DNA of 32,000 bases. Origin: Sulfolobus acidocaldarius DSM 639. Lineage in GTDB: Archaea > Thermoproteota > Thermoprotei_A > Sulfolobales > Sulfolobaceae. Position numbers and translations under genes: made by a program. The notes under the pieces are model-generated. The model was not told the origin of the DNA and made no database searches. It was given only the letters and a program-made list of their open reading frames with translations. Each line of letters begins with the position of its first letter. Position 1 is the first letter of the stretch. Of the stretch, positions 1,395-21,049 are shown piece by piece. The DNA is taken from NCBI RefSeq assembly GCF_000012285.1, contig NC_007181.1, positions 1,530,001-1,562,000 of the forward strand, given 5' to 3'.

Positions 1395-2090
1395 TTAATT
1401 ACGTGTATATTTTTTCACAGCAACCGAATCTAAGCCAATTTTCACTAGTTTTTCATTTAATTTACTTACTAAACTACTTTCGCTCTCCTCTGTAAGCCAG
1501 TTGTTTACTCTGAGAGAGAATAACTTATCCAGTCTCAGTTTCCTCATATGTTCATAGACGTCGTTTAGTCTAGGTAGCCAGAAGTTTAGTGCTCCCTGTA
1601 TCTTATTTCTGTTCTCTCTTGAAAGTCTGATTATCTCGTTCTCGCTAAACATAGTGTGGTACTCGTCATCCTTTACTATACTTTTTGCCAACTTACTTAA
1701 TGGTTCGTATTCACAATCCATAAGTGAATTCATCAGAATTACGTTGTAGCTGTCAATTACGAAAACAAACGCCACGGCGTCCTCCCATGTAAATAAGGGC
1801 AAATTGAAGGGCTCTAACCTATGTAATCCAAGCCTCAGTTCTTGTAGCTCTTTAACCTTATCCTTTTCACCAAAGTCCTCGATCATACGAGACATCTGCC
1901 ATGCGTGATTCAGCTCATCTGCGACAAACCTAGCAGTGAATAGTCTGGAGTCCACAGTTGGGGAGTTAACTAGCCATGGAGATGTTTGCTCCACAATAGC
2001 TAGTTTAGAATCGGCGATCACAAAAATTAGATCTAAGAGCTCCGTCTTCAGCTCCTCATCTTTTATATCGCTGGGAGTTTTGATTGTCAT
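1395..2090 (-). CDS. Phenylacetic-acid-catabolic family protein (PaaC-like second ferritin-like subunit)
   Basis: 231 aa and paralogous to the upstream gene. Shared blocks include RFVADELNHAWQM vs RIMADEMRHGWQI, and LHRLEPFNLPLFTWEDAVAFVFVIDS vs KHRLDAFNMPFNLWEDTIAFTFLIDR. It starts 9 nt after the stop of the PaaA-like gene, so the two are probably co-transcribed. The second metal motif is altered (DDEYH instead of EEEFH). Confidence 0.7.
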   Translation of the reverse strand: MTIKTPSDIKDEELKTELLDLIFVIADSKLAIVEQTSPWLVNSPTVDSRLFTARFVADELNHAWQMSRMIEDFGEKDKVKELQELRLGLHRLEPFNLPLFTWEDAVAFVFVIDSYNVILMNSLMDCEYEPLSKLAKSIVKDDEYHTMFSENEIIRLSRENRNKIQGALNFWLPRLNDVYEHMRKLRLDKLFSLRVNNWLTEESESSLVSKLNEKLVKIGLDSVAVKKYTRN

Positions 2091-2099
2091 TATATGTCC

Positions 2100-2870
2100 C
2101 TAAAGAACTCTCCTGTTCTTGTAGGGATCAGGTAATTCTAAACCGAGAGGCGATACTAGTTCCTCTACGTCTTTCATATACATCTTTCTCATCTCCTCAT
2201 TACTCCACTTCTTTAAGCCGTATTTGTAAGCTAACTCAATAGTTCTAGATCTGGAATGCCCAAACATGTCTAAGCCCCTAGGGTACCATTTATTAATTAA
2301 CTTTTGGGCTATGTCCCTCTTTCCGCTCTCTACGAGCCTCTTTATTCCAGTGTAGCCAAAGTTTATGTGAAACTCCTCCTCCATCAGCATTGTTGGTATT
2401 ATCCTTGAGAGGGGACCAAAACTTGAATCTTCAAAAGCCATTAATTGGTAAAGACCGACCCTGTCAATTAAGAACGTGAAGGCTATTGTATCCTCCCATA
2501 AGTTGAAAGGCATGTTAAAGGCGTCTAACCTGTGCTTACCCATCCTAGTGGCTAGGAGTTCCTCCGCGATTCTTTTCCCCGGTTCGCCAAACTCCTTGAG
2601 CACTTGTATGATCTGCCATCCGTGTCTCATTTCGTCTGCCATAATTCTTGCTATGGTAACCCTTTCGGTGAGACTAGGGGCGTGAAATAGCCAATATAGG
2701 TGTTGTTCAATTGAGGCAAATTCAGTATCCCCTTGGACACTCAATAATTTTAATAGAACCTCCACAGCCTCCTGTGGCAACTCGTAAACTGACTCAAACT
2801 TCCTAATACCTGTGAAGTCGCCCCAGTTAATAACCCTCTTTGGTTTCTTATACTCCCACTTTGTTACCAT
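2100..2870 (-). CDS. PaaA-like ferritin-fold di-iron oxygenase subunit (1,2-phenylacetyl-CoA epoxidase family, PF05138-like)
   Basis: 256 aa. It has paired carboxylate/His motifs typical of di-iron four-helix-bundle oxygenases (ADEMRHG and MEEEFH), and its overall pattern resembles PaaA. A TATA-like TTATATA lies on the minus strand at 2893-2899, about 26 nt upstream of the ATG. Confidence 0.75.
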   Translation of the reverse strand: MVTKWEYKKPKRVINWGDFTGIRKFESVYELPQEAVEVLLKLLSVQGDTEFASIEQHLYWLFHAPSLTERVTIARIMADEMRHGWQIIQVLKEFGEPGKRIAEELLATRMGKHRLDAFNMPFNLWEDTIAFTFLIDRVGLYQLMAFEDSSFGPLSRIIPTMLMEEEFHINFGYTGIKRLVESGKRDIAQKLINKWYPRGLDMFGHSRSRTIELAYKYGLKKWSNEEMRKMYMKDVEELVSPLGLELPDPYKNRRVL

Positions 2871-2890
2871 GTTATAACTTTCACATTTTG

Positions 2891-2985
2891 CGTATATAAC
2901 GCTTTCTATACGTGTTACGTTTTTAGCGAAAATCTTGTAATTTTTGAGATTTATGAATAATTTCTATACGTTTATTTTACGCGCA
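2891..2985. promoter_or_regulatory. Divergent promoter region with repeated TTTCTATACGT / TATACG elements between two TATA boxes
   Basis: TTTCTATACGT occurs twice as a direct repeat (2903-2913 and 2961-2971). CGTATA (2891-2896) is inverted relative to TATACG (2907-2912). The TATA boxes are at 2893-2899 (minus, PaaA-like gene) and 3002-3010 (plus, crotonase gene). Confidence 0.45.
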
Positions 2986-3032
2986 TTAAACATAACATAA
3001 AATATATAAATAAGGAATTACAGTCATCTATC

Positions 3033-3836
3033 ATGGGTCTGTCAGAGTTATCACCAAAGTTCTTCAAGATAGAAGTGGAAGACGGAGTAGGTATAGTGAA
3101 GCTAAATAGACCTCCAGCAAACGCTCATAATCTGGAAATGCTAAGAGAGCTTGATAACATAATAGTGGAGTCGAGGTTTGATGACAATGTAAAGGTTATA
3201 GTGATAACCAGCAATACTCCTAGATTTTTCTCTGCTGGGTTCGATATAAACGAGATAAAGGACAAATCCCCTGAGTACATTGGTCTATCCAGCCAGTACA
3301 GTAAGGAAGTTATGCTTAGGATGATGTCTACGAGGAAGCTGATAATAGCCTCTATAAACGGACATTGTATGGGTGGTGGATTGGAACTAGCAATGGCTTG
3401 CGATATAAGGTTCATTGCCAATGACGATAACATTAAATTAGGTATGCCAGAGGTCTCTAACCTTGCTCTTATCCCAGGGGAAGGAGGAACACAATTTTTA
3501 GCTAGGATAGTAGGTAGGTCTAAGGCGATATATCTTATGACTACAGGCAAGACTCTTACTCCAAAGGAAGCCTATGAGTTGGGACTTGTTGAGCGACTCG
3601 TGGAACCAGAGAAGTTGTATACAGAAACCATGGACTTTGCAAGGAAGGTTGCTAGTGGTCCTGCTAAGGCAGTGGGATTTGCGAAGTTGGCTGTTAATGA
3701 AGGTTTAGATATACCTCTGTACACTGCTTTTGCACTAGAGAGAGAAATGCAGAATCAGGCGTTAGCCTCAGAAGATGCCAAGGAGGGTGCAAGGGCATTC
3801 TTTGAAAAGAGGAAACCAGTGTTCAGGGGCAAATAG
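3033..3836 (+). CDS. Enoyl-CoA hydratase/isomerase (crotonase superfamily)
   Basis: 267 aa. Crotonase hallmarks are FSAGFDINE, INGHCMGGGLELAMACDIR and LPGEGGTQ-like IPGEGGTQFLARIVG, with a C-terminal EGARAFFEKRKPVF. Confidence 0.9.
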   Translation: MGLSELSPKFFKIEVEDGVGIVKLNRPPANAHNLEMLRELDNIIVESRFDDNVKVIVITSNTPRFFSAGFDINEIKDKSPEYIGLSSQYSKEVMLRMMSTRKLIIASINGHCMGGGLELAMACDIRFIANDDNIKLGMPEVSNLALIPGEGGTQFLARIVGRSKAIYLMTTGKTLTPKEAYELGLVERLVEPEKLYTETMDFARKVASGPAKAVGFAKLAVNEGLDIPLYTAFALEREMQNQALASEDAKEGARAFFEKRKPVFRGK

Positions 3837-4021
3837 TTAAAGTTATTTTAACATTATATTGATCTTAGCTTCCAAAACAACTCCACTCCACACTTGAGGG
3901 ACAACAAATGTCAACACATTTTAAGTTAGTTGAGGAAGTCCGTTTTATGGCTAAACAAGTCTATAACTGTTCTCTTTCCTCTTTTTGTTGAAGCTCTCTA
4001 ACGTTCATCGCTATCGGAAGT

Positions 4022-5308
4022 TTAAAAAATCTCGTAAAACACTCTTTCTGAAGATATCAGGTATAAAAAGATGGATATGGGCATTATTACCTTGTTGTCT
4101 TTCATCCCTATTTCATCGAGACTTAATATGTACCCCTCACTTAACCTTAAGTCGTTATAGTTTGCACTCCCATACTTCACCTCCACTCCCACATTTCTTA
4201 CCACAAAGTCAACTTCCTTACCGCTCTTAGTGAAAGTATATCCAACTTCACGTCCGTACTCTCTAGCCAAATGTTCACCTACTATTCCCTCAACGACTCT
4301 GGGCAACTCCTCCCTACTGATATCACCGATTCCTCTGGTATACATTTTCATAACCCTGTATATAAAGGGGTCAATAAAGTAAACCTTCTTAAAGGATTTA
4401 TTGTTAAAGTGTCCGTTCTCGATTTTCCTGAACACTCTGAAAGTGAATAAATTTTCACCCAGCTCAAGGTAGCTCTTAACCGTATTGTGTGAACCTATTG
4501 AGGTCTTTTTTGCTATGGTGTTTTCGGAGATTCTGCTACCAAGAGAGTCAATTATCTCCCCTATAATATCAATAAATATTCTCTCGTCCCTGCCTAATTT
4601 CGCTAAATCGCTTAATGTTGCATCCTTATAGACACTATATAACTCTAATGGGTTATCGATTAAGTTTGTGGCTAGAAAGCCTCCTCTTTCAACGTATCTT
4701 AATAACGCAGTATTTAACTCCTGTAAGTATGGTAATAAGTCTTTAGCCTTCTCATAACTTTCCTTAAGGTTGAACAGGTTTATCCTGTCTACGTTGATCT
4801 TATTTTGGAAGAATACGTTGAAATAAGTCCTAAAGTCAAGTGGGTAAAAGACTAATTTCTTTAGTGGTCTTCCTGGTAGTGTCTCCTTCATTAAGTACAT
4901 TGACGTAGATCCAGTAACGTAAACTATTGAGTCTCTAAAGTATCCAGCATTAAATAAGTGTAGAAGCCCAACATTCCAGTCCTTTACAAAGGTTATCTCG
5001 TCAAGGAAGATGTAACCATTGTTGGGATTAATTAAATTCCTGTACTCATGTATTAGCTCTATTAGGTCTTCCATGTCCCTCATAGAATCGCATGAGAAGA
5101 AAAGGGCTTTTTTAGGATTAGCCTCGCTCTCTAGAACCTCCATTATGGTAGTCTTCAGAAAGGTCGTCTTGCCTACCTGCCTGGGACCCAGTAACAGAAT
5201 GTTCTCTCGGATGGGAGGTATTCTATAAGGGGAATTAGCTACCTTTCTCACTGTTTCGTCCTCATAAATTTTGCTCTTATCACTCCACCAAGGGTTTTGA
5301 AAGACCAT
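4022..5308 (-). CDS. AAA ATPase (AAA_14/DUF4143-type 'archaeal ATPase') with a C-terminal PD-(D/E)xK nuclease-like motif
   Basis: Walker A is LLLGPRQVGKTT and Walker B is GYIFLDEITF. The C-terminal GKEVDFVVRNVGVEVKYG (nt 4175-4216) gives a D...ExK signature. The track ORF starts at GTG 5326. The ATG at 5308 (MVFQNPWW...) is the more likely start. Confidence 0.8.
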   Translation of the reverse strand: MVFQNPWWSDKSKIYEDETVRKVANSPYRIPPIRENILLLGPRQVGKTTFLKTTIMEVLESEANPKKALFFSCDSMRDMEDLIELIHEYRNLINPNNGYIFLDEITFVKDWNVGLLHLFNAGYFRDSIVYVTGSTSMYLMKETLPGRPLKKLVFYPLDFRTYFNVFFQNKINVDRINLFNLKESYEKAKDLLPYLQELNTALLRYVERGGFLATNLIDNPLELYSVYKDATLSDLAKLGRDERIFIDIIGEIIDSLGSRISENTIAKKTSIGSHNTVKSYLELGENLFTFRVFRKIENGHFNNKSFKKVYFIDPFIYRVMKMYTRGIGDISREELPRVVEGIVGEHLAREYGREVGYTFTKSGKEVDFVVRNVGVEVKYGSANYNDLRLSEGYILSLDEIGMKDNKVIMPISIFLYLISSERVFYEIF

Positions 5309-5339
5309 TCGTGATATGAGTGACACATTGTTAATGTAT

Positions 5340-5412
5340 TGACAAGTTTAATATAAACTTTGTCATTGGTTGACAACTTTAAGGTAAAACTTGTCATAAG
5401 AGTGACAAGTTT
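5340..5412. repeat. Array of five TGACAAGTTT-type 10-mers in alternating orientation (iterons/operators) upstream of the ATPase gene
   Basis: TGACAAGTTT 5340-5349 (+). AAACTTTGTCA 5355-5365 (inverted, 1-nt insertion). TGACAACTTT 5371-5380 (+, 1 mismatch). AAACTTGTCA 5387-5396 (exact inverted copy). TGACAAGTTT 5403-5412 (+, exact). A degenerate TGACACATT lies at 5321-5329. Confidence 0.7.
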
Positions 5413-5610
5413 AGGAAATCTAATCAGTTTATATAAACCATCTTACTAACGCATTACTCCATGTCTGAAGAAAGGAGTTAATGATCTCCCCAAGACCAGT
5501 AGTTCTTGTTTTGATCATTTAGATAAAAAGTTCCTGCTCTACGAATCTGTGGACCCATGTTAATCCTCAAAACTCCTCCTGATTGGGGTCATTGTAACAG
5601 TAGTTTGATA

Positions 5611-5640
5611 TATACGACAATTTTACGTATAACAATTTTA
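5611..5640. promoter_or_regulatory. Palindromic operator-like site upstream of the aromatic-CoA ligase promoter
   Basis: TATACGacaattttaCGTATA (5611-5631) is an inverted repeat. ACAATTTTA is directly repeated at 5616-5624 and 5632-5640. The site shares TATACGnnnATTTTACG with 2965-2981. Confidence 0.4.
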
Positions 5641-5690
5641 GAATAAAATACTTAAATACTGAATTATAAAAAATATATTTAGGAAATAGC

Positions 5691-7271
5691 ATGAGCAGTA
5701 AGTATGGGGACATTTTAAATGTAACAGATGCTATTTTCTCGAAAAGGAGTAATGAGCTAGGGAGACCTGCTATATACTACAAAGACGAGATATGGACCTA
5801 TAGGAGGTTGATAGACGAAATAAATAGAGTAGGTAATGCATTGAAGAAGTTCTTAGAGAGAGAACAGAGACTCCTCATGATTTCTTATGACTCGCCATAC
5901 TTCATATCAGTGTTTTATGGCGCAATGAAAATAGGAGCCTTCCCAATTCCAGTTAATACATTTACAATACCCGATGACCACATATTCTACTTGGAGGACA
6001 GTAAAGCTAAAGTCCTAGTCGTAGAGCCTGAAATTTGGGACAGGCTAGCCAGTAAATTAAACGGTAGAACTGAGGAGTTGAAGTATGTCATGATATTGCC
6101 CGGAGGACATAGGGAACAGTTACATATTTCCCCTCACCCAGCTAAGGTTATGCTGTATGAGGATATAGTCCCCCACGAATCCACTGACTTAAATCCAGCA
6201 AAGACGTCCCCTGACGAACCTGCATTTGGACTATACACTTCAGGGAGCACAGGGCATCCCAAGTGTGCTGTCCATCTCCACAAGGACATAATAGTTGTTT
6301 TAAATACATACGTTAAGAACGTTCTGAAAATTAATGAAAATGATAAGCTCTTTAGCGCGTCAAAGCTCTTCTTCGCATATGGGCTAGGTAACTCCTCTTA
6401 TTTTGCCTTCGGAAATGGTGCATCAGTGGTCTTAATGCCTGAGAGAGTAGAACCAAAGAGAGTCCTTCATTATATCCAGACATATAAACCCACAATATTC
6501 TTCGCAGTTCCGACAATTTACAACTCTCTACTTAACGTGGAGGAGTGGAAAAAATATGATTTAAGCTCAATAAGGCTTTGCGTATCAGCAGGAGAGCCAT
6601 TACCTGGAAAAATTTATGAAGAGTGGAAGAAGAGGTATGTTGTTGAGATCTTAGACGGAATAGGTTCAACGGAAGCTCTTCACATATACATATCGAACTT
6701 TCCTGGAGAATCAAGACCTAACTGCACGGGAAAAGTAGTCCCTGGCTATGAGGTTAAAATAGTTGACGAAAATGGTAACCAGGTTAAGGCTGGGGAAATA
6801 GGTGACTTGTATGTGAAAGGTGACAGTGTAGCCATGTATTATTTACACAAGTATGAGGACACCAGAAAAAACATGCAAGGTTATTGGTTTAGAAGTGGAG
6901 ACAAATTTTACTTTGACGATAATGGATATTTGTACTATATCGGGAGGTCTGACGACATGATCAAAGCAGGGGGTATGTGGATTTCCCCCATTGAGGTGGA
7001 GTCAGTTATACTCACCCATGAAGCAGTGCTAGAGGCAGCAGTTGTGGGAATAAAGGATGAGGTGGGATTGACTAAGGTGGTCGCTTTTGTTGTACCTAAG
7101 CAGGGATATGAGGCTAATGAAAAATTAGAGGAGGGAATAAAGGAGTATTTGAAGGGCAAACTTCCTTCGTATAAAATACCAAAACAGATTAGGTTTGTTA
7201 ATGAATTACCTAAGACAGCTACAGGAAAGATTCAACGTTATAAGTTCAGAACCGGTGAAGTGAAATCTTAA
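5691..7271 (+). CDS. Aromatic-acid--CoA ligase (benzoate / 4-hydroxybenzoate-CoA ligase family, ANL superfamily)
   Basis: 526 aa. The AMP-binding motif is YTSGSTGHPKCAVHLH. The block EILDGIGSTEALHIYISN closely resembles the DGIGSTEMLHIFLSN block characteristic of the benzoate/4-HBA-CoA ligase clade. The C-terminal PKTATGKIQRYK is also present. A TATA-like TTATAAAAAA lies at 5664-5673. Confidence 0.85.
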   Translation: MSSKYGDILNVTDAIFSKRSNELGRPAIYYKDEIWTYRRLIDEINRVGNALKKFLEREQRLLMISYDSPYFISVFYGAMKIGAFPIPVNTFTIPDDHIFYLEDSKAKVLVVEPEIWDRLASKLNGRTEELKYVMILPGGHREQLHISPHPAKVMLYEDIVPHESTDLNPAKTSPDEPAFGLYTSGSTGHPKCAVHLHKDIIVVLNTYVKNVLKINENDKLFSASKLFFAYGLGNSSYFAFGNGASVVLMPERVEPKRVLHYIQTYKPTIFFAVPTIYNSLLNVEEWKKYDLSSIRLCVSAGEPLPGKIYEEWKKRYVVEILDGIGSTEALHIYISNFPGESRPNCTGKVVPGYEVKIVDENGNQVKAGEIGDLYVKGDSVAMYYLHKYEDTRKNMQGYWFRSGDKFYFDDNGYLYYIGRSDDMIKAGGMWISPIEVESVILTHEAVLEAAVVGIKDEVGLTKVVAFVVPKQGYEANEKLEEGIKEYLKGKLPSYKIPKQIRFVNELPKTATGKIQRYKFRTGEVKS

Positions 7272-7525
7272 GTATTATTGTCCAACCACTAGGAGATGTA
7301 TGTTAACATGTTGTTACTGAATATTATGACTAAAAATTTAAATTTTTACTTATCTTTGTGAAGAATGTGATATTATGAAGGTTTCAAATATTTCTGACGT
7401 ATTTATATTCACACATAATTTTACACAAGATTGTGTATTATGTCGTCTTTCTAAATCAAAAATAAAAAGTATGACATTCGAGGGAGAGATATCTAAATTA
7501 ATTTCTGTTGCATTAAGTGAGTAAT

Positions 7526-8314
7526 ATGAAGTTTCAAACGCTGTTCTTCACGATTTATGGAGACTACATTATAAACTACGGAAATAGCATAACTGTGAGG
7601 AGTTTGATAAAGATAATGAGAGAGTTCGGTTTCACAGAGGGGGCAATAAGGGCAGGTCTATTCCGTTTAAGGCAAAAGGGACTGGTGGACATGATTGACA
7701 GGAGGAGGTGTAGTTTATCCGAAGCTGGGTTATATAGGTTACAGGAAGGTATGAAAAGAGTCTACGAGAAGAGGAACGGAGAGTGGGACGGAAAATGGAG
7801 AATAGTAGTTTACAATATACCTGAGTCAAATAGGAGTGTCAGAGACGAGATGAGAAAAACCTTAAAGTGGTTGGGCTTTGGATACCTGGCTCAATCGACA
7901 TGGATATCGCCAAACCCAGTTGAGGAGAGCCTAACTAAATTCATTAATGAATTAAAAGATAGTAGAACCAATGTTGACATATTCTTCTTTATTTCGGACT
8001 TTGTTGGAAATCCCCTTGAGATAGTAAGGAAGTGTTGGGATCTGAAAGAGGTCGAGGAGAAATATAAGGAGTTTGTGAACCAATGGGGCAAAGTTATGGA
8101 GAACATATCTTCTCTGAAACCAAATGAGGCATTCATAACCAGAATTAGATTGGTTCATGAATACAGGAAATTTTTACACATTGATCCAAACTTACCTAAA
8201 GATCTACTACCGCCAAATTGGGTAGGTTACGAGGCATATGAGCTATTTCAAAAACTGAGGAATAAGCTCTCAACATTGTCTGACCAGTTCTTTAAGTCGG
8301 TATATGAACCTTGA
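7526..8314 (+). CDS. paaX: PaaX-family transcriptional regulator
   Basis: LFFTIYGDY, the wHTH-like region LIKIMREFGFTEGAIRAGLFRLRQKGL, and WDGKWRIVVYNIPE...LKWLGFGYLAQSTWISP all parallel E. coli PaaX (SLYGDS..., ...WDGKWLLLL...LIWQGFGALAPSLMASP). The track ORF begins at GTG 7517. The ATG at 7526 is the likely start. Confidence 0.85.
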   Translation: MKFQTLFFTIYGDYIINYGNSITVRSLIKIMREFGFTEGAIRAGLFRLRQKGLVDMIDRRRCSLSEAGLYRLQEGMKRVYEKRNGEWDGKWRIVVYNIPESNRSVRDEMRKTLKWLGFGYLAQSTWISPNPVEESLTKFINELKDSRTNVDIFFFISDFVGNPLEIVRKCWDLKEVEEKYKEFVNQWGKVMENISSLKPNEAFITRIRLVHEYRKFLHIDPNLPKDLLPPNWVGYEAYELFQKLRNKLSTLSDQFFKSVYEP

Positions 8315-8533
8315 ACGATTAAATCACGGATTTTTGTTATCGAGTCTTCTTCTATTATCACAAAGAATAAGCATTATCCCCTTAAATTAAGTTAACAGTG
8401 CCTAAAACCACGGAGTTTTTGAGACCCTTAATTTAAGTTAAAGTATACACACTCAGTTATATTCTCTTCAAGTAATCAAAAAAACTAGAGCGAGATTTCA
8501 GGTAAATTAAGATCTAAGTGAAAAAAGATTAAT

Positions 8534-8887
8534 TTACTTGTTTGAGGTGGAGGGTTTTTTAATTATTAAATTCACTATTAACGCTGTCAGTAACGATATT
8601 ATGCCATAGATCAATGGGTAAAGCAATACCACTACAACCCCATTCAATCCTAAAATTCCACCAACTTTATCTGCCAATTGAAGAACGTTCCCTAGGGGAT
8701 ATAAAAGGTAAAGCGAAAGTGAGGCTATAAACCCTACTAGGAACCCTGAGATAGCTGAGTATTTTCTACTCAGTAATCCCAAAGGAATACCAACTAGTAT
8801 GGCAGTAAATGGGTAAAGTACAAACAGTTCAAAGATGTAAGCTAGAATAATGGACACAACTATGTAAATTATTGATCTAGTCTTCAT
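8534..8887 (-). CDS. Small integral membrane protein (about 4 TM), translationally coupled to the acylase gene
   Basis: 117 aa, almost entirely hydrophobic helices. Its ATG (8887-8885) sits 1 nt after the acylase TGA (8891-8889), reading TGAAATG on the minus strand. Confidence 0.6.
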   Translation of the reverse strand: MKTRSIIYIVVSIILAYIFELFVLYPFTAILVGIPLGLLSRKYSAISGFLVGFIASLSLYLLYPLGNVLQLADKVGGILGLNGVVVVLLYPLIYGIISLLTALIVNLIIKKPSTSNK

Positions 8888-8888
8888 T

Positions 8889-11342
8889 TCAATCAGCCTC
8901 CAATGTTATGTTAGCGATAGTAGTGTAACCATACCCGGAGTATGATACATACCTAAAGTTTAGCCAAAGTGGTAGTTGGTTTTGGCTGTACTGATTGAAT
9001 ATTCCCTCTGATGGTCCTCCTGGGAATATCCCGTAGAACAGTGAGGAGTTAATGCATGCGACAAATCTAAGTGAGGACCCTACAGTAACATATGGTAGTG
9101 GAACAGTCGGTACGTATGGGGTTGAACCCACTGCCAAAGTGTGAGGGTCTCCAAATATGGGTATTGGACCTATGGATAACTGACTTAACTGTAATGGATC
9201 ATAGATCTCAAGGAAGTGTACTTTACCCCAGTTCCAGCCACTTACATTAGTTCCTAACTCTTGTTGGAGCAGTGAGATAGCTTTGGCAAAGGCATTTTGA
9301 ACAAGGCTATTGAAATTACCGTTAACCCATATTGATGTAGGATCATTTAGAGCAATATAGATAAGGTCAGGGACAACATAAGGTATACCGGAGATGCCTA
9401 TAATTCCTAGACCATAGTTGTCAAGTATCCTAGCCATACTCATGTTTACCATTTCTGCCACTATATACGTATATATTGTGGGTGCGACCTCTCCCTGGTA
9501 GAATGTATAGTTCCATGATTTAAGGTATTGTACTGCTTGAGCCTCAATTGTCGTATTCCCGTTACCTATGGCTTTAAGTAGAAGAGGTGTGAGCTGAGAA
9601 GCCCAATAATCCGTCACATTTGACTGTAATGACATCATATCGCTCACGTCCACAGACTTCTGGTACTTAAGATAATGATATATGTCCTCTGCTCTTCCTC
9701 CAGAACTCCAATAACCACCTATAAATGGATAAGGATAATTTATCCAGGCAGTTGGCTGATTTGGAGCGAAGGCATAACCTCTTGACGGGTCAAACACTTG
9801 GGGTAAGTACTTGAACGGAACATAACCTACTGGTTCAAACTTACTGGTGGTACCGTTTAGGGGTGTTCTTGCACCAATGACTAAGACGGTCTTCCCGTTG
9901 GGTAAGGTCTCGTTTATAAGGGGATAAGAGCCAGCCACAATGTAGCCCGCATGGTTTCTGCTTATCATTGCTATGTTCTGCGGTGGTATTACCCAGTACT
10001 TAGCAGCATTTATTAAGTCGTTGAAGGAAGTGGAGTTGTCTAGCAGAAGTATTGCAATAACAGTAAGTATTGGTTCTTTCATAGCAGTCCAATAAAGGCT
10101 TATCCCGTAATTTCCTTCTCTTGCAACTAATGGTCCGTTATTAGTGTAATAAACGGTATAGGTCTTTCCCATAAGTGTGTAGTTATATTCCTGCATCGGA
10201 TACCATTTACCGTCAAAGTAATAGTAAGTCCCATTAACCCTTTCCACATAGGCATTAGACGAGCTCCCCTCTGGAGTTGTCAACCCCCACACAGTGTAAG
10301 GTGTATGCCCTATAAGTACTCCAGGGATTCCAACTAGTCCCCAACCTGTAACATTAAATCCTCCCCCAACTAGTTGTAAGGGTATCCACACTGAAGGGTA
10401 AAGTAATGGTAAATGTGGATCATTGGCTAATATAGGTCCTTGAGATGAGAAGTTAGATGTAATTACCCATGAGTTGCTTGCCAGAATAGGTGCAGTGAAA
10501 TCAACGTAAGGGTCTGAGATGTTTAGTAGAGCATATTTCATTAAGGGCACTAGACTTATCAGCTGTTGTTTAGTTAAGCCTGTTGCCCATGACTGATACC
10601 AGTCCAGTGACCATAGATATGACGGAGATATCCCCTGACTTGTGAGATTGTAACCGTTAACAGTCCCATCACCAGGCATCACTGTGAGATTACCATCAAT
10701 GAAGTGCGGATAGTAAGGATTTATCTCGTTGACCTCTGAGAAGTTGAAATATGCGTAGAGGAGGGCAGATGCTAGTTCGTCCGAAAAACCTGAGGTTAAA
10801 CTCCATGCCATGTATTCTCCGAACGCCAGCGAATATATCGGTGCCCAGTTATACGGCTTAACCCCTAAAAACTTAAACTCGAGTGGTAAATTCCTGTAAC
10901 TCAGAGTGCTAATGTAATCATTGACCCCCTCAGAGAAGTCTACGAGGTAAGAGTAAACGGTAGGATAATTTTCCCTTATATAGTTGGTGCTCATATTAGC
11001 GTTCTGAGGTATACCAATTAAGTGCATGGCAATGTCTGAGCTCAGTCCCCTACTACCTACCCATGAGCTCAGGTTTCCCATGGCAAGTAGACCGAAAAAC
11101 TCCATCTGAAAGAGTCTCTGGCTCGCCTCGTAATAACCCTCTGCCAGGAGAAGGTCATGAAGGTTATCAGCGTAAATGTGGGCAATACCATTGTTGTCCA
11201 CATATATATTAACGTTACCCTGAAGCCCATTAATATGGGTTACGTAAGTTAATTCCTTAGTGTTTCCTGTTGTAACCCAGACTCCTAAGTAAGGGTTCAA
11301 AATCGCAAGGGGTAGAGTGAACAGAGATACTAGTATTAACAC
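8889..11342 (-). CDS. Penicillin acylase / penicillin amidase family Ntn hydrolase (PF01804-like), secreted and sequon-rich
   Basis: 817 aa. The Ntn nucleophile context is ILASNSWVITS (the SNxW motif at the start of the beta chain in this family), and the length and architecture fit the family. It has an N-terminal hydrophobic anchor and many N-x-S/T sequons. The GTG start at 11342 is uncertain. The frame stays open upstream to 11390 (CKISIRNYVFAGILVV...) with no ATG. Confidence 0.85.
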   Translation of the reverse strand: MLILVSLFTLPLAILNPYLGVWVTTGNTKELTYVTHINGLQGNVNIYVDNNGIAHIYADNLHDLLLAEGYYEASQRLFQMEFFGLLAMGNLSSWVGSRGLSSDIAMHLIGIPQNANMSTNYIRENYPTVYSYLVDFSEGVNDYISTLSYRNLPLEFKFLGVKPYNWAPIYSLAFGEYMAWSLTSGFSDELASALLYAYFNFSEVNEINPYYPHFIDGNLTVMPGDGTVNGYNLTSQGISPSYLWSLDWYQSWATGLTKQQLISLVPLMKYALLNISDPYVDFTAPILASNSWVITSNFSSQGPILANDPHLPLLYPSVWIPLQLVGGGFNVTGWGLVGIPGVLIGHTPYTVWGLTTPEGSSSNAYVERVNGTYYYFDGKWYPMQEYNYTLMGKTYTVYYTNNGPLVAREGNYGISLYWTAMKEPILTVIAILLLDNSTSFNDLINAAKYWVIPPQNIAMISRNHAGYIVAGSYPLINETLPNGKTVLVIGARTPLNGTTSKFEPVGYVPFKYLPQVFDPSRGYAFAPNQPTAWINYPYPFIGGYWSSGGRAEDIYHYLKYQKSVDVSDMMSLQSNVTDYWASQLTPLLLKAIGNGNTTIEAQAVQYLKSWNYTFYQGEVAPTIYTYIVAEMVNMSMARILDNYGLGIIGISGIPYVVPDLIYIALNDPTSIWVNGNFNSLVQNAFAKAISLLQQELGTNVSGWNWGKVHFLEIYDPLQLSQLSIGPIPIFGDPHTLAVGSTPYVPTVPLPYVTVGSSLRFVACINSSLFYGIFPGGPSEGIFNQYSQNQLPLWLNFRYVSYSGYGYTTIANITLEAD

Positions 11343-11397
11343 AACTACTAAAATGCCTGCAAATACGTAATTCCTAATACTAATTTTACATCACCTC

Positions 11398-11607
11398 CTA
11401 AAACTGTCCAGTGGGTGTTGAAGTTCTGATATGGTTAAGGAGAGTATTTATCGCGTATTTATCTCCTAGTTGCACAATCGTCGAGGGAGATAATTTAGAA
11501 TGGTGGTCTGTCCCACATACGCTCCCTGTTGATCCCAAGATTGTTGTATCTTTTTCAACGTCTCGGTTTCTTAAGGACAAACTCAGAAGTGGTTTGTTTT
11601 TCTTCAT
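11398..11607 (-). CDS. Hypothetical small protein (weak call)
   Basis: 69 aa, ATG start, with an A/T-rich box about 25 nt upstream on the minus strand. It ends just before the acylase gene. I see no recognisable motif, and an equally long ORF lies on the opposite strand. Confidence 0.3.
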   Translation of the reverse strand: MKKNKPLLSLSLRNRDVEKDTTILGSTGSVCGTDHHSKLSPSTIVQLGDKYAINTLLNHIRTSTPTGQF

Positions 11608-11805
11608 AATGATCTAATTTATAGATATATTTAACTAATTAAATATCTGCAGCTAATAACTGACTTTTCACTTCTTGTTAACTAGACAAATTGGGATTAA
11701 AAATTTTAATTATCTTTACATAAGGAAACTTGAAGACAATCTTGAATTTATAAAATAAATTTCAAATATAGGAAAATTTAATATTCAAAAAGTACATTAT
11801 GTATA

Positions 11806-13482
11806 ATGATGTCTGAGGACTCATGGAAAAACGTTTATTCATACCTCTCTAACTCTTACGGCAAAAACCACTTCACTATTGATAAACCATTTCAACAACT
11901 TTTGAAGTACTTTAGAGGGGCTGTCCCCGATCTGACACCATTAGGTGAATTTGCTGGAGGGGAGTTACTGGAAATTTCAGATTATATAGATAAAGGGGCT
12001 CACCCTAAACACATCATGTGGAGTATAGACGGACAAAGAGTTGATGAGGTCTGGATTTCACCTATGCAAAGGTTAGTTCTAGAGAGATTGTTAAAAGAGT
12101 ACCACGTTAATGCCTATCCGTATAAGGGAGGGGATTGGTTCCAGCACTTTGCATCAATATACCTAATCTCAGATCCCGGAATAGCGTGTATCCTGACTGT
12201 GACAAATCAAACAGCTTATACCCTATACAAGTACGGAGACGCTTATCAGAGAACACTTGTAGACGGAATGATCGGTGAAAACGATAAGATACTCTTTGGT
12301 GCAACATGGTTTACAGAAGTTCAGGGAGGAAGTGATTTAGGTGCTAACCTCGTTGAGGCTTATAAAGATGGGAATACTTGGAAATTAAACGGAATCACCA
12401 AGTATTTCGCCAGTGATGCAGGGTTAGCTCATTACGCTTTAGTTACAGCCAGACCTAAGGGAGCTCCATCAGGAGCAAAAGGGTTAGGTCTCTTCTTAGC
12501 CCCTAAATTAGATTCCTCAGGGAGAAGGAACTTTTTGATCAGGAGATTAAAGGAAAAAAGTGCTACTATCAGTGTTCCTACTGGAGAGGTAGAGTTTCAT
12601 GGTTCTGAAGCCCAACCTATAGGAGAGTTAAATCAGGGAATATACTACACAGTCGAGACCTTAACTGTGTCCAGAATAGCTAATGCATTTGGAGCTCTGG
12701 GATTAGCCAGGAAAGCGTATCTTGAGGCTTACTACTACGCACAAAAGAGGAAAGCATTTGGAAAACCCTTAATTGAACATCCGTTAGTACGTAGAGACCT
12801 ATTAGATATGGAAGTTTACATTGAGGGTACTATGGCACTTGCTCTGAAGTCAGTTAGTGAATTTCAGAAGTCGTGGATGTCGACTCCACCCTATAATGAA
12901 AATTACAATTACGCCAGGTTGTTGACTCACATAGCCAAGAATATGACTGCTGATATGTCAGCTTACGTCACCAAAATGGCTATGGAGCTTCATGGCGGTA
13001 TAGGGTTTCTGAGGGAGTTTCCCATAGAACGACTTCATAGGGAGGCTCTGATTACACCCATATGGGAGGGACCAAGTAATATTCAAGCTTTAGACATGCT
13101 TGAAGCATTGGTTAAAAAGAAAGCTCATTTGACACTTATAAAGGATATGGAGAATTTAGTAAATCAGTTGAAGGAGGATAGAGACCTTGGTGATCTAGCA
13201 TTAAGGAGTATTAATGAGTCCCTTTCAGGGATTTTGGGCATGCAGATTCAGGACGCCCAGTATTATGCGAAAGACCTACTGAATACCCTAGGTAATGCGG
13301 TTGCAACTGTTCTACTCCTTCATGCGGGGGAGAGTTTAGGATCCAGTAGGTTAAGGACAGTTGGCAAACTCTACGCTACGCGGTTCTTGGAGGGAAAAGT
13401 GTACCCGATTGAGGATCTCAGAGGTGGAGATGTAGTATTTATGATAGACGAAGTAGAGTTGAAGGCTGAGACAAATGGGTAA
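11806..13482 (+). CDS. Acyl-CoA dehydrogenase, long AidB-like form
   Basis: 558 aa. ACAD blocks are FGATWFTEVQGGSDLG, WKLNGITKYFASDAG, AFGKPLIEHPLVRRDL and HGGIGFLREFPIERLHREALITPIWEGPSNIQ. N- and C-terminal extensions match the ~550-aa AidB-type subgroup. A TATA-like box lies at 11774-11787. Confidence 0.85.
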   Translation: MMSEDSWKNVYSYLSNSYGKNHFTIDKPFQQLLKYFRGAVPDLTPLGEFAGGELLEISDYIDKGAHPKHIMWSIDGQRVDEVWISPMQRLVLERLLKEYHVNAYPYKGGDWFQHFASIYLISDPGIACILTVTNQTAYTLYKYGDAYQRTLVDGMIGENDKILFGATWFTEVQGGSDLGANLVEAYKDGNTWKLNGITKYFASDAGLAHYALVTARPKGAPSGAKGLGLFLAPKLDSSGRRNFLIRRLKEKSATISVPTGEVEFHGSEAQPIGELNQGIYYTVETLTVSRIANAFGALGLARKAYLEAYYYAQKRKAFGKPLIEHPLVRRDLLDMEVYIEGTMALALKSVSEFQKSWMSTPPYNENYNYARLLTHIAKNMTADMSAYVTKMAMELHGGIGFLREFPIERLHREALITPIWEGPSNIQALDMLEALVKKKAHLTLIKDMENLVNQLKEDRDLGDLALRSINESLSGILGMQIQDAQYYAKDLLNTLGNAVATVLLLHAGESLGSSRLRTVGKLYATRFLEGKVYPIEDLRGGDVVFMIDEVELKAETNG

Positions 13483-15016
13483 TTATTTCACTGTTTTTGA
13501 ACTCTTGAAAAGAGCGAAAGATCTGACACCTAATGTCGAGATCGTGTATGGTGACAATATATATACGTACAAGGAAGTTTATGAGAGGGTAGTGAAGCTT
13601 GCTAATTCTCTCCATAATCTTGGCATAAAGAAGGGGACAACAATAGGTGTTGCAGACTGGAACACCAACAGATTTGTGGAGTTACTCTATGCTTCAGCTC
13701 TGTTAGGCTGTGTAATTTACCCAGTTAACATTAGACTACCTCCTGAGCAAATAATCTGGACAATTAAATTCGCCAACGTGGAATGGTTGTTCATAAGCCG
13801 TGACTTTGAGGCGTTATCTAAGGTGTTTGATTCCTCTAAAGTTGTTTATCTAGATGGTAATAACGGTCAAATAAGTTATGAAGACCTCATTTCTAAGGGT
13901 GCTATGGAAAAGGTAAATTATGATGTTAAGGGAGGAGACCCTTACTCCATTCTGTTTACCTCAGGTACTACAGGTAAGCCGAAGGCTGTGATGTATACAC
14001 ACGAGAAGGTAATTCATGGTGCATTAAGTATAGTCCATCAGCTTGGTCTTTACAACTCTCCTGCAAAACTCTCCTCTAATGACGTCATAATGCCATTTAT
14101 CCCATTCTATCACTTGTGGTCGTGGGGTTCTGCATTTATAGCCTCTTACCTTGGAGCTAAATACGTCTTGACCGGTAAGTTTGACCCAAAAACCGCTATA
14201 CAACTAATCAAAAGGGAAAATGCTACGTGGATAAATGCAGTCCCCACAATGATACAGATGATATTATCTTCAGGAGAACAGTTGCCTGGAGTTAAAGCGC
14301 TTATAGGTGGACAGGCTATTCCCTATAATGTTGCTAAATCCATATCCGATGCAGGGTTAAAGTTCTCAACGATCTACGGAGGCACTGATATGTTGGCAAT
14401 ATCCATTTCAATTATACCAGGTAAGTTCCAAGTCAATGATGATATAGATTATTTACGCACAACTACCCATCCAGTCCCCTTTGTTGAGGTAAAGGTTATT
14501 AAACCAGATGGGACTGAGGCTAGTTACAACGAGATTGGTGAGTTATATGTTAGGGCTCCCTGGTTACCAGGTTCATACTACAATAATCCCGAAGAGACTC
14601 AGAGAGCGTATGACGAGAATGGCTGGTTCAAAACAGGTGATTTAGCAATAATAACAGAGGAAGGGGGTCTAAGGATAGTCGACAGATTAAAGGACGTGAT
14701 AAAGAGCGGTGGTGAGTGGATCCCCAGTAGCGTATTGGAGTCCATCATTTCGGAGATCCCTGCAGTCGAACAGGTTGCAGTATTAGGATATCCAGACCAG
14801 AAATGGGGAGAAAGACCTATGGCAGTAGTGAAACTGAAGCCAGGTCAAAGGACTGATCAAAAAGAGATTTTAGAATATCTTAGAGATGCAGTGAATAAGG
14901 GCAGGATAAATAAGTGGTGGCTACCTGATAAGATAGTGTTTGTTGATAATATGCCATTGACTAGCACAGGAAAGATAAATAAACTCGCCTTAAGGAAGGA
15001 TGTGGGAATAGGTTAA
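13475..15016 (+). CDS. Acyl-CoA synthetase (AMP-forming, medium/long-chain fatty-acid--CoA ligase type)
   Basis: 513 aa. Motifs are FTSGTTGKPKAVMYTH, YGGTDM, WFKTGDLA and TSTGKINK. The start overlaps the ACAD stop by 8 nt (ATGGGTAA). Confidence 0.9.
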   Translation: MGNYFTVFELLKRAKDLTPNVEIVYGDNIYTYKEVYERVVKLANSLHNLGIKKGTTIGVADWNTNRFVELLYASALLGCVIYPVNIRLPPEQIIWTIKFANVEWLFISRDFEALSKVFDSSKVVYLDGNNGQISYEDLISKGAMEKVNYDVKGGDPYSILFTSGTTGKPKAVMYTHEKVIHGALSIVHQLGLYNSPAKLSSNDVIMPFIPFYHLWSWGSAFIASYLGAKYVLTGKFDPKTAIQLIKRENATWINAVPTMIQMILSSGEQLPGVKALIGGQAIPYNVAKSISDAGLKFSTIYGGTDMLAISISIIPGKFQVNDDIDYLRTTTHPVPFVEVKVIKPDGTEASYNEIGELYVRAPWLPGSYYNNPEETQRAYDENGWFKTGDLAIITEEGGLRIVDRLKDVIKSGGEWIPSSVLESIISEIPAVEQVAVLGYPDQKWGERPMAVVKLKPGQRTDQKEILEYLRDAVNKGRINKWWLPDKIVFVDNMPLTSTGKINKLALRKDVGIG

Positions 15017-15053: not shown

Positions 15054-15659
15054 TCAATTTTTTAAGTAGAACTGTATGGCTAGATTAATAGCCTCTTGCA
15101 TTTTATCTAAGCTCATAAACGCCATATCTCTTTTGGACTCTATTGCACACTTCTCATGGCACGGTATATGTATAAACCCTCCCCTAGCGCCAATTCCTTT
15201 AGCCTCCCTGAGTACGAGGAACATAGTCATATTACAGATATACGATCCAGCACTGAGGCTTATCTCTGAGGGAATGTTCTTAGATTTCAGGTATTCAACT
15301 AATTCTTCTACAGGCAAATTAGAAAATATCCCGTCAGGCTCATTCATGTCAATTCTTTGTCCCTTATATGTGACTCCCATGTTATCAGGTATCCTGGAGT
15401 ACTTATAATTTATAGCAATTTTCTCAGGAGTGATCTTAGTTCTTCCAGGTGCCAATCCTATACCTAAAATTAGGTTTGGCTGGTAACGTCTTATACTCTG
15501 GGTCACCATTTCTTCAAGCTTATCGTATACAACAGGTAGTATTACTCCTATTATCTTATGCCCCTCAATTACATTACCGTTCAAATTTCTTACAATTATT
15601 TCAGATGGATTTTCACTATATTCAGAAAATGGTTCGAACCCAAATAACAAAACTGTCAT
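15054..15659 (-). CDS. pcp: Pyrrolidone-carboxylate (pyroglutamyl) peptidase I
   Basis: 201 aa. It has the family-typical N-terminus MTVLLFGFEPFSEYSENPSE, the catalytic Cys context SAGSYICN and the His context GGFIHIP. Confidence 0.9.
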   Translation of the reverse strand: MTVLLFGFEPFSEYSENPSEIIVRNLNGNVIEGHKIIGVILPVVYDKLEEMVTQSIRRYQPNLILGIGLAPGRTKITPEKIAINYKYSRIPDNMGVTYKGQRIDMNEPDGIFSNLPVEELVEYLKSKNIPSEISLSAGSYICNMTMFLVLREAKGIGARGGFIHIPCHEKCAIESKRDMAFMSLDKMQEAINLAIQFYLKN

Positions 15660-15949
15660 ACTAAAATTTTTAATTTTCTGATTAAAATTTTTAATTCAAT
15701 TTTAGACATAGGTTGCTTTTGCAGTGAGGGGGAGAATGAGAGGAGTTTAGAGCCTTTGACAAAAGGTAAATGCAACTTTGTACTATATTACCCTCTCTCC
15801 TCACAATCCGTATTTAGGTCTACATCGTCGAAGACATATCACAAAACTAAAAACCCTTAATTCATCTCAGTTAACTAAATCATTTCTAATAAAGCGTATA
15901 TCCTGACGATCCTAATCTTAAATACTAAATTTTCCACTAAACCAAAATA

Positions 15950-17152
15950 TTATTCCTCACTGTAGTTTCCATAGCCTCTATATATTTTACCGTCCTTGAC
16001 CACATACATTATATGAGATGGGGATAATTCCTCTAAACTGGCTAATGGGTCTCCCCTTACCGCAATTAGATCTGCCTTGAAACCAGCTCTTATATACCCC
16101 ACATTCCTTAACCCTAAACATTCACTGGCTACACTTGTCGAAGCTCTAAGTGCATCTATATTGCTCATGTACCTAGAGAGTAGCACAGCCTCTATGTAGT
16201 TCTGACCATGGGGTCTCTTCTTGGAGCCAACATAATCAGTACCTGTGGCTATCTTTAACCCGTGTTCAACAGCTATCTTCATGTCCTCATTAAAGTGTCT
16301 CCTTATCATTTCCTCTCTATACATCTTAGCCTCTGGATTTACTGATTCAAAGGGTATCTGATAAGTAGCTAATGTCGGTATATAACATATGCCTCTTTCC
16401 TTAATCATCTGAGCAGTCTCCTCATCTAAACCTAAACCGTGTTCTATTGTATCTACTCCAGCCATAATTGAGTTCATTAACGCCTCCTTTCCATATGCAT
16501 GAGAAGCTACTAATAGACCAGCCCTATGGGACTCCTCCACTATAGCCTTTAATTCATCTAAAGCAAAACCAGGTAATATTCTGCCTCCCTGAGAGAATGC
16601 ACCTGAAGAGTAGACTTTTATCACAGTTGCCCCCTGTCTTATTGCCTTTCTAACTGCTTTCCTACATTCGTACGGTGAATCACAGTAAAAGGAGTACGAG
16701 ATTGACTGTGCGAAGTCCAGGGGAAGTTCCTTAGGGTCATCATTACCGCCTGTTATTGCCAATGAGTATCCTGAAGCAATAACCCTTGGTCCTATTATCT
16801 CTCCTCTCCTTTGCAATCTGTCAAGTCTTACCGCTACCTTGCTTCCCAGATCCCTCACAGTAGTAAAACCTGATCTCAAAAGCGTTTCCATGTCTCTAGT
16901 GCTCCTTATTGCTACATCTATCTCATTTACTATATTCCAGGAGAGTACATTATCCTCTTCCACTCCAAAGAAGTGTAGATGAGCATCGATTAGCCCCGGC
17001 ATTATCAAGTCAGCGTAGATTGTTTTTGAGCTTGCCCTACTGTTCTCCTCACCTTCAATTACATCCACTATCTTGTCATCCTCTACTACTACAGTCCCCT
17101 TAGGGATAACTCTCTCTCCATCAAATATTTTACCAATTAAGGTTAATTTCAT
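15950..17152 (-). CDS. Metal-dependent amidohydrolase (PF01979-type; prolidase / imidazolonepropionase-like subgroup)
   Basis: 400 aa. The HxH metal motif is PGLIDAHLHF. Later ligand contexts are VASHAYG, IEHG and TGTDY. The substrate cannot be inferred. Confidence 0.8.
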   Translation of the reverse strand: MKLTLIGKIFDGERVIPKGTVVVEDDKIVDVIEGEENSRASSKTIYADLIMPGLIDAHLHFFGVEEDNVLSWNIVNEIDVAIRSTRDMETLLRSGFTTVRDLGSKVAVRLDRLQRRGEIIGPRVIASGYSLAITGGNDDPKELPLDFAQSISYSFYCDSPYECRKAVRKAIRQGATVIKVYSSGAFSQGGRILPGFALDELKAIVEESHRAGLLVASHAYGKEALMNSIMAGVDTIEHGLGLDEETAQMIKERGICYIPTLATYQIPFESVNPEAKMYREEMIRRHFNEDMKIAVEHGLKIATGTDYVGSKKRPHGQNYIEAVLLSRYMSNIDALRASTSVASECLGLRNVGYIRAGFKADLIAVRGDPLASLEELSPSHIMYVVKDGKIYRGYGNYSEE

Positions 17153-17301
17153 GACTAAATAAATTACTTAAAGGTTTATAGCATTAAGTGAAGGAAAGTT
17201 GTCATTATTGGCTTCTCCTGTCAGTAATGTATTATTTAAAAGTTTGAGAAAGAAAAATAAGAAAAATACTAGATATTCGTTATAGAACATATTCAACTCT
17301 A

Positions 17302-20798: not shown

Positions 20799-21049
20799 TA
20801 CAGATTTTTCCCTTTTGTCGTATGATCTAACTTTCTCATTAAGTTTATTCTGAATCTCGTTCCGGAGTACTTGTTTTTTAACAGCGTATATAGGGGATGG
20901 GTTTTCAATTAATTCAATATGTTACATTCTCTATATATAAAAACTATTTCATTATGACTCTGTATCTATATAGTGATTCGTTTATAAACTCTTATAATAT
21001 TACTTTTCATAAACTAAGTATTAATATTAAGAGATTAAAACGCAAATTT

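Follow-up and report, generated by a model that had tools for sequence, protein, structure and literature searches.

Does the penicillin-amidase-family hydrolase of Sulfolobus acidocaldarius belong to a conserved island for the degradation of aromatic acids, under the control of the PaaX-family regulator encoded next to it? The question is raised by a 13.6-kb span (positions 1395–15016) of the 32-kb window analysed here, the stretch from 1,530,001 to 1,562,000 of the single 2,225,959-bp contig of the S. acidocaldarius genome (labelled G000). A first-pass annotation had seen in this span one PaaX-acylase island, and had suggested an amide-scavenging pathway analogous to that of Escherichia coli W, where PaaX represses the penicillin G acylase gene pac. 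The list of open reading frames (ORFs) and profile searches confirmed that all genes which it had listed are present where it had placed them, and added two genes within the span that it had missed, coding for an AAA_14/DUF4143 ATPase and a 117-aa membrane protein. The single island did not survive: synteny resolves the span into three separate modules (A, B and C), which adjoin one another in no genus but that of the window. We consider it probable that three independent units have been juxtaposed in this one genus, and that module A is a reduced aryl-coenzyme A (aryl-CoA) oxidation module. The juxtaposition is real but ordinary, and the variant at its centre, of a pathway type already known, is of moderate interest.

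For the synteny comparison, the PaaX protein was run against 40 related genomes and 20 kb around every match was taken, after which each window protein was compared with all of these loci. In the second Sulfolobus genome (G001) the complete arrangement of the window genes is syntenic, and only there and in S. acidocaldarius do the three modules adjoin. The five core genes of module A are also contiguous at three loci of a second genus (L010 and L011 in genome G019, L012 in genome G009), where the crotonase and PaaA-like genes are divergent from the PaaC-like, ligase and PaaX genes, in an order that differs from that of the window. The flanks of these loci resemble neither one another nor the window; among other genes they contain an IS605-type TnpB gene and a PaREP1 gene. 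The retention of the five-gene set through rearrangement and changed surroundings is good evidence that this core is a conserved functional unit, and the association of regulator, ligase, oxygenase and crotonase in the first-pass annotation is therefore conserved across genera. The acylase does not travel with it: G019 has two acylase copies more than 170 kb from its two core copies, G009 contains the core without an acylase, and G002, G010 and G020 (assemblies only 79–91 % complete) contain an acylase without a PaaX match. In the loci examined, the acylase was never beside PaaX outside G000 and G001. With this non-conservation in relatives, which the first-pass annotation had itself named as decisive, the PaaX-acylase link is not supported, and neither is an amide-scavenging pathway under PaaX control.

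Module A (1395–3836 and 5613–8314) consists of a crotonase, a PaaA-like/PaaC-like di-iron pair, a benzoate-CoA-ligase-family enzyme and PaaX, and profile matches bear out all of these identities. The two PF05138 genes lie 9 nt apart on the minus strand, and code for a PaaA/BoxB-like catalytic di-iron subunit (2100–2870, 103 bits) and a PaaC-like second di-iron subunit (1395–2090, 74.6 bits). The PaaA-like subunit (256 aa) has kept all six di-iron ligands (E50, E80-x-x-H83, the Asp of LIDR, and E165-x-x-H168), as judged from alignment to the BoxB structure 3PER and to its own orthologues. It scores below the equivalog cut-offs of both BoxB (TIGR03225, 105 vs 499 bits, with a match spanning the metal core only) and PaaA (TIGR02156, 98 vs 280 bits). 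The gene Saci_1770, which has been named PaaA-like 'catalytic subunit' (PMC6101591), should correspond to the ORF at 2100–2870 rather than that at 1395–2090. A database entry from S. acidocaldarius is identical (100 %) to part of the PaaA-like protein, and the control genome of this species matches PF05138; together with the naming of Saci_1770, these are the grounds on which the species is identified. Similarly, the PaaC-like subunit does not reach the PaaC equivalog cut-off (TIGR02158, 45 vs 133 bits), and in S. acidocaldarius two of its ligands are altered, with Lys in place of the first Glu and Asp in place of the Glu in the second E-x-x-H box. The orthologue of the second genus and the Protein Data Bank (PDB) entry 4MUD retain the full ligand set, the Metallosphaera protein is heavily degenerate, and the Sulfobacillus cluster is without a second subunit. 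This pattern of ligand loss suggests that the PaaC-like protein is mainly a structural partner, as PaaC is.

The other three genes of module A are on the plus strand. The crotonase-fold enoyl-CoA hydratase (3033–3836, PF00378, 189 bits; 267 aa) carries both Glu residues, in the motifs GGGLE and MPE read from the sequence, which we take to be the catalytic pair by comparison with rat enoyl-CoA hydratase. Its closest NCBIfam and PDB matches are generic hydratases, with 172 bits to PaaF and 138 bits to PaaG, and it thus appears to resemble ordinary hydratases and PaaF more than PaaG. The predicted aryl-carboxylate (benzoate-type) CoA ligase (5691–7271) clears the cut-off of TIGR02262 (505.2 vs 375.25 bits), and its closest solved structures are anthranilate-CoA and benzoate-CoA ligases at 354–396 bits, the next class following at 226 bits. 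The regulator (7517–8314, likely start codon ATG at 7526) has all three PaaX domains, each above its Pfam cut-off (PaaX 58.8, PaaX_M 93.4 and PaaX_C 108.2 bits), remains under the cut-off of the equivalog TIGR02277 (207.5 vs 264.55 bits), and is matched over residues 8–250 by the E. coli PaaX structure 8A39 (101.7 bits).

In bacteria, the aerobic routes by which aromatic acids are degraded as CoA thioesters have been elucidated (the paa and box pathways), and our literature search found no characterisation of it in the Sulfolobales. With the E. coli paa catabolon (paaABCDE, paaFGHIJ, paaK, paaZ and paaX), module A shares the three-domain PaaX regulator, a PF05138 catalytic subunit with a PaaC-like partner, a crotonase-fold enzyme and a CoA ligase producing the presumed inducer, whereas the S. 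acidocaldarius ligase is of the benzoate type and not of the PaaK type. The first-pass annotation had also reported canonical Paa components to be missing from the window, and we searched for these in five genomes each (G000, G001, G009 and G019, with either G018 or G022 as the fifth). Neither PaaB (PF06243), for which the control genomes did match, nor the PaaE reductase (TIGR02160) had a match in G000, G001, G009, G019 and G018. For PaaD there were only generic matches of about 47 bits against a cut-off of 108 bits, distant from the cluster, and the top PaaZ match (TIGR02278) reached 138 of the required 563 bits, with separate aldehyde dehydrogenases and MaoC-like proteins occurring elsewhere in the genomes searched. 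PaaK matches were all under the curated cut-off, and a PaaK-like ligase is located about 600 kb away. The reported absence can thus be extended to the five genomes for PaaB and PaaE, and amounts to sub-cut-off matches for PaaD and PaaZ; the chemistry or the electron supply must consequently differ from that of E. coli paa, as the first-pass annotation had expected.

The box pathway (BclA, BoxA, BoxB and BoxC of Azoarcus and Burkholderia) also starts with a benzoate-CoA-ligase-family enzyme, and the solved relatives of the S. acidocaldarius ligase include the Burkholderia benzoate-CoA ligase 2V7B, an enzyme of the box pathway. Over the metal core, the alignment of the di-iron subunit to BoxB is slightly better than that to PaaA, and in both cases a crotonase-fold enzyme follows the oxygenase. 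The differences from the box pathway are in protein architecture: the S. acidocaldarius subunit of 256 aa has a separate PaaC-like partner whereas the solved BoxB chain (3PER) has 481 aa, and the S. acidocaldarius crotonase is a single 267-aa protein of hydratase type. The closest solved homologue of the pair is 4MUD, entitled 'ring oxydation complex/phenylacetic acid degradation related protein' (198 bits to the PaaC-like and 150 bits to the PaaA-like subunit), which differs in retaining every ligand position partly lost in the S. acidocaldarius PaaC-like subunit, and for which no paper on function was found in the literature searched. Module A appears to work like the upper paa or box pathway under a PaaX-type repressor, yet is a member of neither by curated criteria.

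Variants of the core with additional genes are found in relatives. That of Metallosphaera yellowstonensis also includes genes for a thiolase, a DUF35 protein, a PaaK-type ligase and a 3-hydroxyacyl-CoA dehydrogenase. In the bacterium Sulfobacillus thermosulfidooxidans (L034) the crotonase, PaaA-like protein (57 % identity), AMP-forming ligase and PaaX are encoded in a single array together with a CoA-transferase, thioesterase, thiolase, aldehyde dehydrogenase, MaoC hydratase, SDR protein and ferredoxin. The Sulfobacillus array is like module A in these four genes, and unlike it in having a single PF05138 subunit and in having the lower pathway and a ferredoxin encoded alongside. Its adjacent aldehyde dehydrogenase and MaoC genes seem to correspond to the two halves of PaaZ, and its ferredoxin is a candidate electron donor. 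A distant bacterial relative similarly adjoins crotonases, an aldehyde dehydrogenase and a thioesterase. In a quick, midpoint-rooted tree, from which we make no claim on the direction of transfer, the Sulfolobaceae PaaA-like proteins are sister to a Sulfobacillus-type clade within a short-form group which is otherwise of Chloroflexi type. The contexts of these relatives support a predicted aryl-CoA ring-oxidation pathway, of which the S. acidocaldarius locus would be only the upper, minimal part. The PaaX/ligase/oxygenase/crotonase core is real, and a reduced variant of the paa/box type.

Two further observations concern the distribution of the core and of PaaX. The two core copies of G019 (L010:5508–9552 and L011:5489–9539) share only 76.8 % DNA identity over 4.1 kb, and are therefore old duplicates or separate acquisitions rather than a recent duplication. 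A second PaaX paralogue (about 48 % identity) is present in G018 (L014:6147–17934) and G009 (L013), in an array of genes for an aldehyde dehydrogenase, a 4HBT thioesterase, an AMP-ligase, PaaX, an LplA-like protein, another AMP-ligase and an SCP2-like protein, with an acetoacetate-decarboxylase-family gene and an acetyl-CoA-synthetase-like gene divergent from it. Neither an acylase nor a PF05138 gene is present at these paralogue loci.

The analysis shows the gene families, the di-iron ligands, the synteny, the distribution among genomes and the conservation of the promoters, while the substrate of module A, its epoxidation chemistry, its electron donor and the binding of PaaX are parts of the reading that we infer from these comparisons. 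The benzoate-type ligase would turn an aromatic carboxylate into its CoA thioester, which would cause the PaaX repressor to dissociate from ACG-N9-CGT sites in the promoter region between the PaaA-like and crotonase genes and in the ligase promoter. The PaaA/BoxB-like subunit with its PaaC-like partner would then oxygenate the ring, with electrons from a donor encoded elsewhere, probably a ferredoxin, and the crotonase would hydrate the oxygenation product. Later reactions would be left to general aldehyde dehydrogenases and beta-oxidation enzymes encoded elsewhere in the genome.

The best-surviving alternative, which we nevertheless regard as unlikely, is that the PaaA/PaaC-like pair works as a di-iron hydroxylase or desaturase on some other position of an acyl-CoA, non-aromatic or in a side chain, and that the crotonase hydrates the enoyl-CoA so formed. 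It would fit the position of the PaaA-like protein, far under the PaaA and BoxB equivalog cut-offs and in a separate short-form clade, and it would suit a crotonase that has both Glu residues and resembles ordinary hydratases. The genomes searched also contain no PaaB, PaaE or ring-opening PaaZ orthologue, and some Chloroflexi homologues adjoin only a thioesterase. What speaks for the ring instead is the company of the oxygenase: the adjacent ligase is clearly in the aryl-carboxylate CoA ligase family, the Sulfobacillus array supplies the two activities of PaaZ in its aldehyde dehydrogenase and MaoC genes, and PaaX of E. coli, the single characterised regulator of its family, responds to aryl-CoA, which fits the name given by the depositors of 8A39.

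If module A does oxidise the ring, a more tentative extension, possible rather than probable in our view, is that it represents a third type of aryl-CoA oxygenase, made up of a short PaaA/BoxB-like subunit and a PaaC-like subunit, driven by ferredoxin and needing neither PaaB nor a dedicated reductase. Such a module may have been exchanged between thermoacidophilic archaea and Sulfobacillus, and may serve to remove membrane-permeant aromatic acids (e.g. benzoate), which are uncouplers at low external pH, with the archaeal PaaX sensing aryl-CoA. A minimal reductase-less module, together with the first candidate operator of an archaeal PaaX, would be tractable in S. acidocaldarius, for which genetic tools exist, and could address both the electron supply of di-iron aryl-CoA oxygenases and the handling of aromatic weak acids by acidophiles.

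With regard to regulation, the first-pass annotation had pointed to a TATACG element shared by promoters, and a test of this showed an ACG-N9-CGT block to be conserved in the core promoters of three genera. Upstream of the PaaA-like gene the block TATATAACG-N9-CGT (2893–2915, with ACG-N9-CGT at 2899–2913) overlaps a TATA-like box, and a second, weaker copy is located at 2967–2983; the columns TATAACG-N9-CGT are invariant across six orthologous divergent promoters from three genera. Upstream of the ligase gene there is a palindrome TACG-N9-CGTA (5613–5629), and T(A/G)CG-N9-CGTA is conserved in five orthologous ligase promoters. Both are candidate PaaX operators. When a weight matrix built only from sites of the other genera was scored on the 32-kb window, the sites at 5613, 2967 and 2898 ranked first, second and fourth, all of them in the two core promoters. 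The third-best match (AACGATTAAATCACGGA at 8314–8330, with 11.3 bits) has the final base of the paaX stop codon as its first position and lies in the gap between paaX and the 3' end of the convergently oriented acylase operon; it may well be due to chance. The whole S. acidocaldarius genome contains only 100 ACG-N9-CGT sites, of which 24 are outside long ORFs and two of these 24 in the core promoters. The element is best seen as a conserved promoter element and a candidate operator, which is too short to define a regulon. A PaaX regulon based on it was considered and rejected, as at six of the 24 sites outside long ORFs that were checked the downstream genes were unrelated (a winged helix-turn-helix regulator, a thermopsin, TmcA, a DUF2079 protein, an M20 peptidase and an ORF without a Pfam match).

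Several points weigh against the reading of the span as three independent units with a reduced aryl-CoA oxidation module among them. The roles of the genes in all three modules rest on sequence comparison, and with the PaaA-like subunit under the PaaA and BoxB cut-offs, both the substrate and the reaction of module A are extrapolated; the module also has no assigned reductase. The ACG-N9-CGT element is short and unspecific on a genome-wide scale, with the ligase site no higher than 11th and unrelated genes downstream of other good sites. Published RNA-seq of S. solfataricus (Saccharolobus) does speak for the reading of module A, in that SSO2017/18 and SSO2019–2022, which are the divergent halves of its core, are induced jointly, but the inducing agent was hydroxyurea and not an aromatic acid (PMC5134839). 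Finally, modules A, B and C do adjoin in two Sulfolobus species, which may reflect local co-regulation. The expression of Saci_1770 was about twofold higher in an S. acidocaldarius tfb3 mutant (PMC6101591). Our search of the literature for Sulfolobus PaaX, penicillin acylase and the locus tags otherwise gave passing mentions only, and no functional study was found.

Module C consists of two genes on the plus strand, an AidB-like acyl-CoA dehydrogenase (ACAD; 11806–13482) with ACAD domains and a weak AidB_N match, and a fatty-acid-type AMP-forming acyl-CoA ligase (ligase 2; 13475–15016; PRK06187, 439 bits), which overlaps the ACAD gene by 8 nt. The closest solved structures are 6SD8, ACDH-11 and AidB for the ACAD, and an acyl-ACP synthetase and the Thermus thermophilus long-chain fatty-acyl-CoA synthetase for ligase 2. 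Orthologous ACAD/ligase-2 pairs are present in G019 and G022, apart from modules A and B. Both genes were thus correctly listed in the first-pass annotation and form a separate unit, of fatty-acid type to judge from the closest solved relatives, which would activate and then dehydrogenate an aliphatic acid. A 4,083-bp stretch with the ACAD/ligase-2 genes is 99.85 % identical between G019 (L045:6893–10975) and G022 (L046:9121–13203), which belong to different genera, and this points to either very recent horizontal transfer or assembly contamination.

Module B consists of the penicillin-amidase-family hydrolase (8889–11342, minus strand; PF01804, 521 bits), which belongs to the N-terminal nucleophile (Ntn) hydrolases, and the 117-aa polytopic membrane protein (8534–8887, minus strand), which starts 1 nt past the acylase stop codon and has no Pfam match. 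The N-terminus of the acylase is hydrophobic, and the protein contains 20 N-x-S/T sequons (2.45 per 100 aa), as compared with 0–3 sequons (0–0.75 per 100 aa) in its cytoplasmic neighbours, which makes its description as a secreted protein plausible. Its Ser289 (SNSW) aligns with residue 1 of the beta chains of penicillin G acylase (PGA) and is the predicted nucleophile, in agreement with the family assignment. Taken together, the N-terminus, the sequons and the alignment of Ser289 suggest that the acylase is very likely an exported, self-processing Ntn hydrolase. It shares the PF01804 fold and the predicted autoproteolytic Ser position with S45 acylases such as penicillin G acylase, D-succinylase (7EBY) and glutaryl-7-ACA acylase. 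Unlike these, it is part of a clade of archaeal acidophiles, is rich in sequons, has a small membrane protein next to it, and reaches no more than 98 bits to solved members (D-succinylase 98 bits, PGA 77 bits).

This clade includes many acidophilic archaea at about 50 % identity, among them Thermoplasmata, Conexivisphaerales and Caldisphaera, and on the one contig examined for each of these three groups the small protein directly follows the acylase, with no PaaX or PF05138 gene within 7 kb of the acylase. In all, a homologue of the small protein follows the acylase in every locus examined besides the window (L028–L033 and L042–L044), with a spacing from a 14 nt overlap to a gap of about 60 nt. 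The small proteins are 110–130 aa in length, polytopic and without a Pfam family, and are 31–58 % identical across Sulfolobaceae, Thermoplasmata, Conexivisphaerales and Caldisphaera, with an invariant YPL within a conserved LLYPL motif. The small protein may anchor the acylase in the membrane or assist its maturation. That the two stay paired across archaeal phyla is a conserved and as yet unexplained trait of an enzyme family of industrial relevance. We see module B as an Ntn amidase that is predicted to be extracellular and glycosylated and has a small membrane protein as its conserved partner, and nothing links its control to PaaX. Two minor observations concern this module: the acylase orthologue of G018 (L021 / L031:8778–11207) has one in-frame TGA, and may be a pseudogene or contain a sequencing error, and thermopsin-family acid protease genes are found a few kb from the acylase pair on the Thermoplasmata and Caldisphaera contigs (L042:1–2649 and L044:10676–13612), with G000:2003590–2005239 also noted for this family.

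Could the acylase be a partner of one of its two neighbours after all? On the side of module C, it could free fatty acids from N-acyl compounds (acyl-homoserine lactones, lipopeptides or N-acyl amino acids), which ligase 2 and the ACAD would then activate and oxidise. The acylase and ACAD genes do diverge from a single 463-bp intergenic region, ligase 2 and the ACAD do resemble fatty-acid enzymes, and in G002 and G018 there are paralogous ligase, crotonase or ACAD genes near the acylase. We still hold such a partnership to be highly unlikely, as the ACAD/ligase-2 pair of G019 is about 46 kb and about 124 kb from the two acylase copies, module C moves alone in the near-identical 4.08-kb stretch of G019 and G022, and the acylase loci of Thermoplasmata, Conexivisphaerales and Caldisphaera are without ACAD/ligase-2 genes.

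The other neighbour is module A, and with it comes a lineage-specific analogue of the PaaX-pac system, in which PaaX controls both the aryl-CoA genes and the acylase, and the acylase frees an aromatic acid from external amides. The E. coli W precedent is in itself correct, and in G000 and G001 paaX and the acylase operon are indeed convergent neighbours, with the 11.3-bit matrix match in S. acidocaldarius located between paaX and the 3' end of that operon. The core and acylase also co-occur in G000, G001 and G019, and on the Caldisphaera contig a gene of the 4-hydroxyphenylacetate 3-hydroxylase (HpaB) family is 1.8 kb upstream of the acylase. The promoter side tells against it, since the intergenic region between the acylase and ACAD genes contains no candidate operator, its best matrix score of 6.6 bits being below the 99.99th percentile of the genome (8.5 bits). 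So does the phyletic pattern, with the adjacency limited to one genus, the two units far apart in G019, each found without the other in G009 and in G002, G010 and G020, and the acylase clade widespread in Thermoplasmata and other acidophilic archaea without PaaX in its flanks. At 77 bits the acylase is only a distant relative of PGA, and this position in another, archaeal clade, together with an adjacency to paaX confined to one genus, means that the E. coli W precedent does not apply to the S. acidocaldarius locus. As with the previous alternative, there is very little probability left for such joint control, and the parallel with E. coli W should stay out of the annotation. The idea that the span is a mobile island was rejected, as the window has neither a tRNA gene nor flanking repeats, and its GC content is even (0.35–0.42).

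Of the remaining genes, the AAA_14/DUF4143 ATPase (4022–5326, minus strand; Pfam match) is not part of module A, which it interrupts only in the genus of the window, being absent from the contiguous cores at L010, L011 and L012. Beyond module C, the region 15054–18780 contains genes for a pyroglutamyl peptidase, an amidohydrolase and an MFS transporter. An orthologue of the pyroglutamyl peptidase is found about 4 kb from one of the G019 acylase copies (L030) and about 9 kb from the ACAD/ligase-2 pair of that genome (L045), so that its proximity to the acylase or to module C is a weak recurrent neighbourhood. Further downstream, a 772-aa ORF without a Pfam match (23564–25882) follows an ArsR-type regulator gene (23063–23362) and a B12-binding radical SAM gene (20897–22651).

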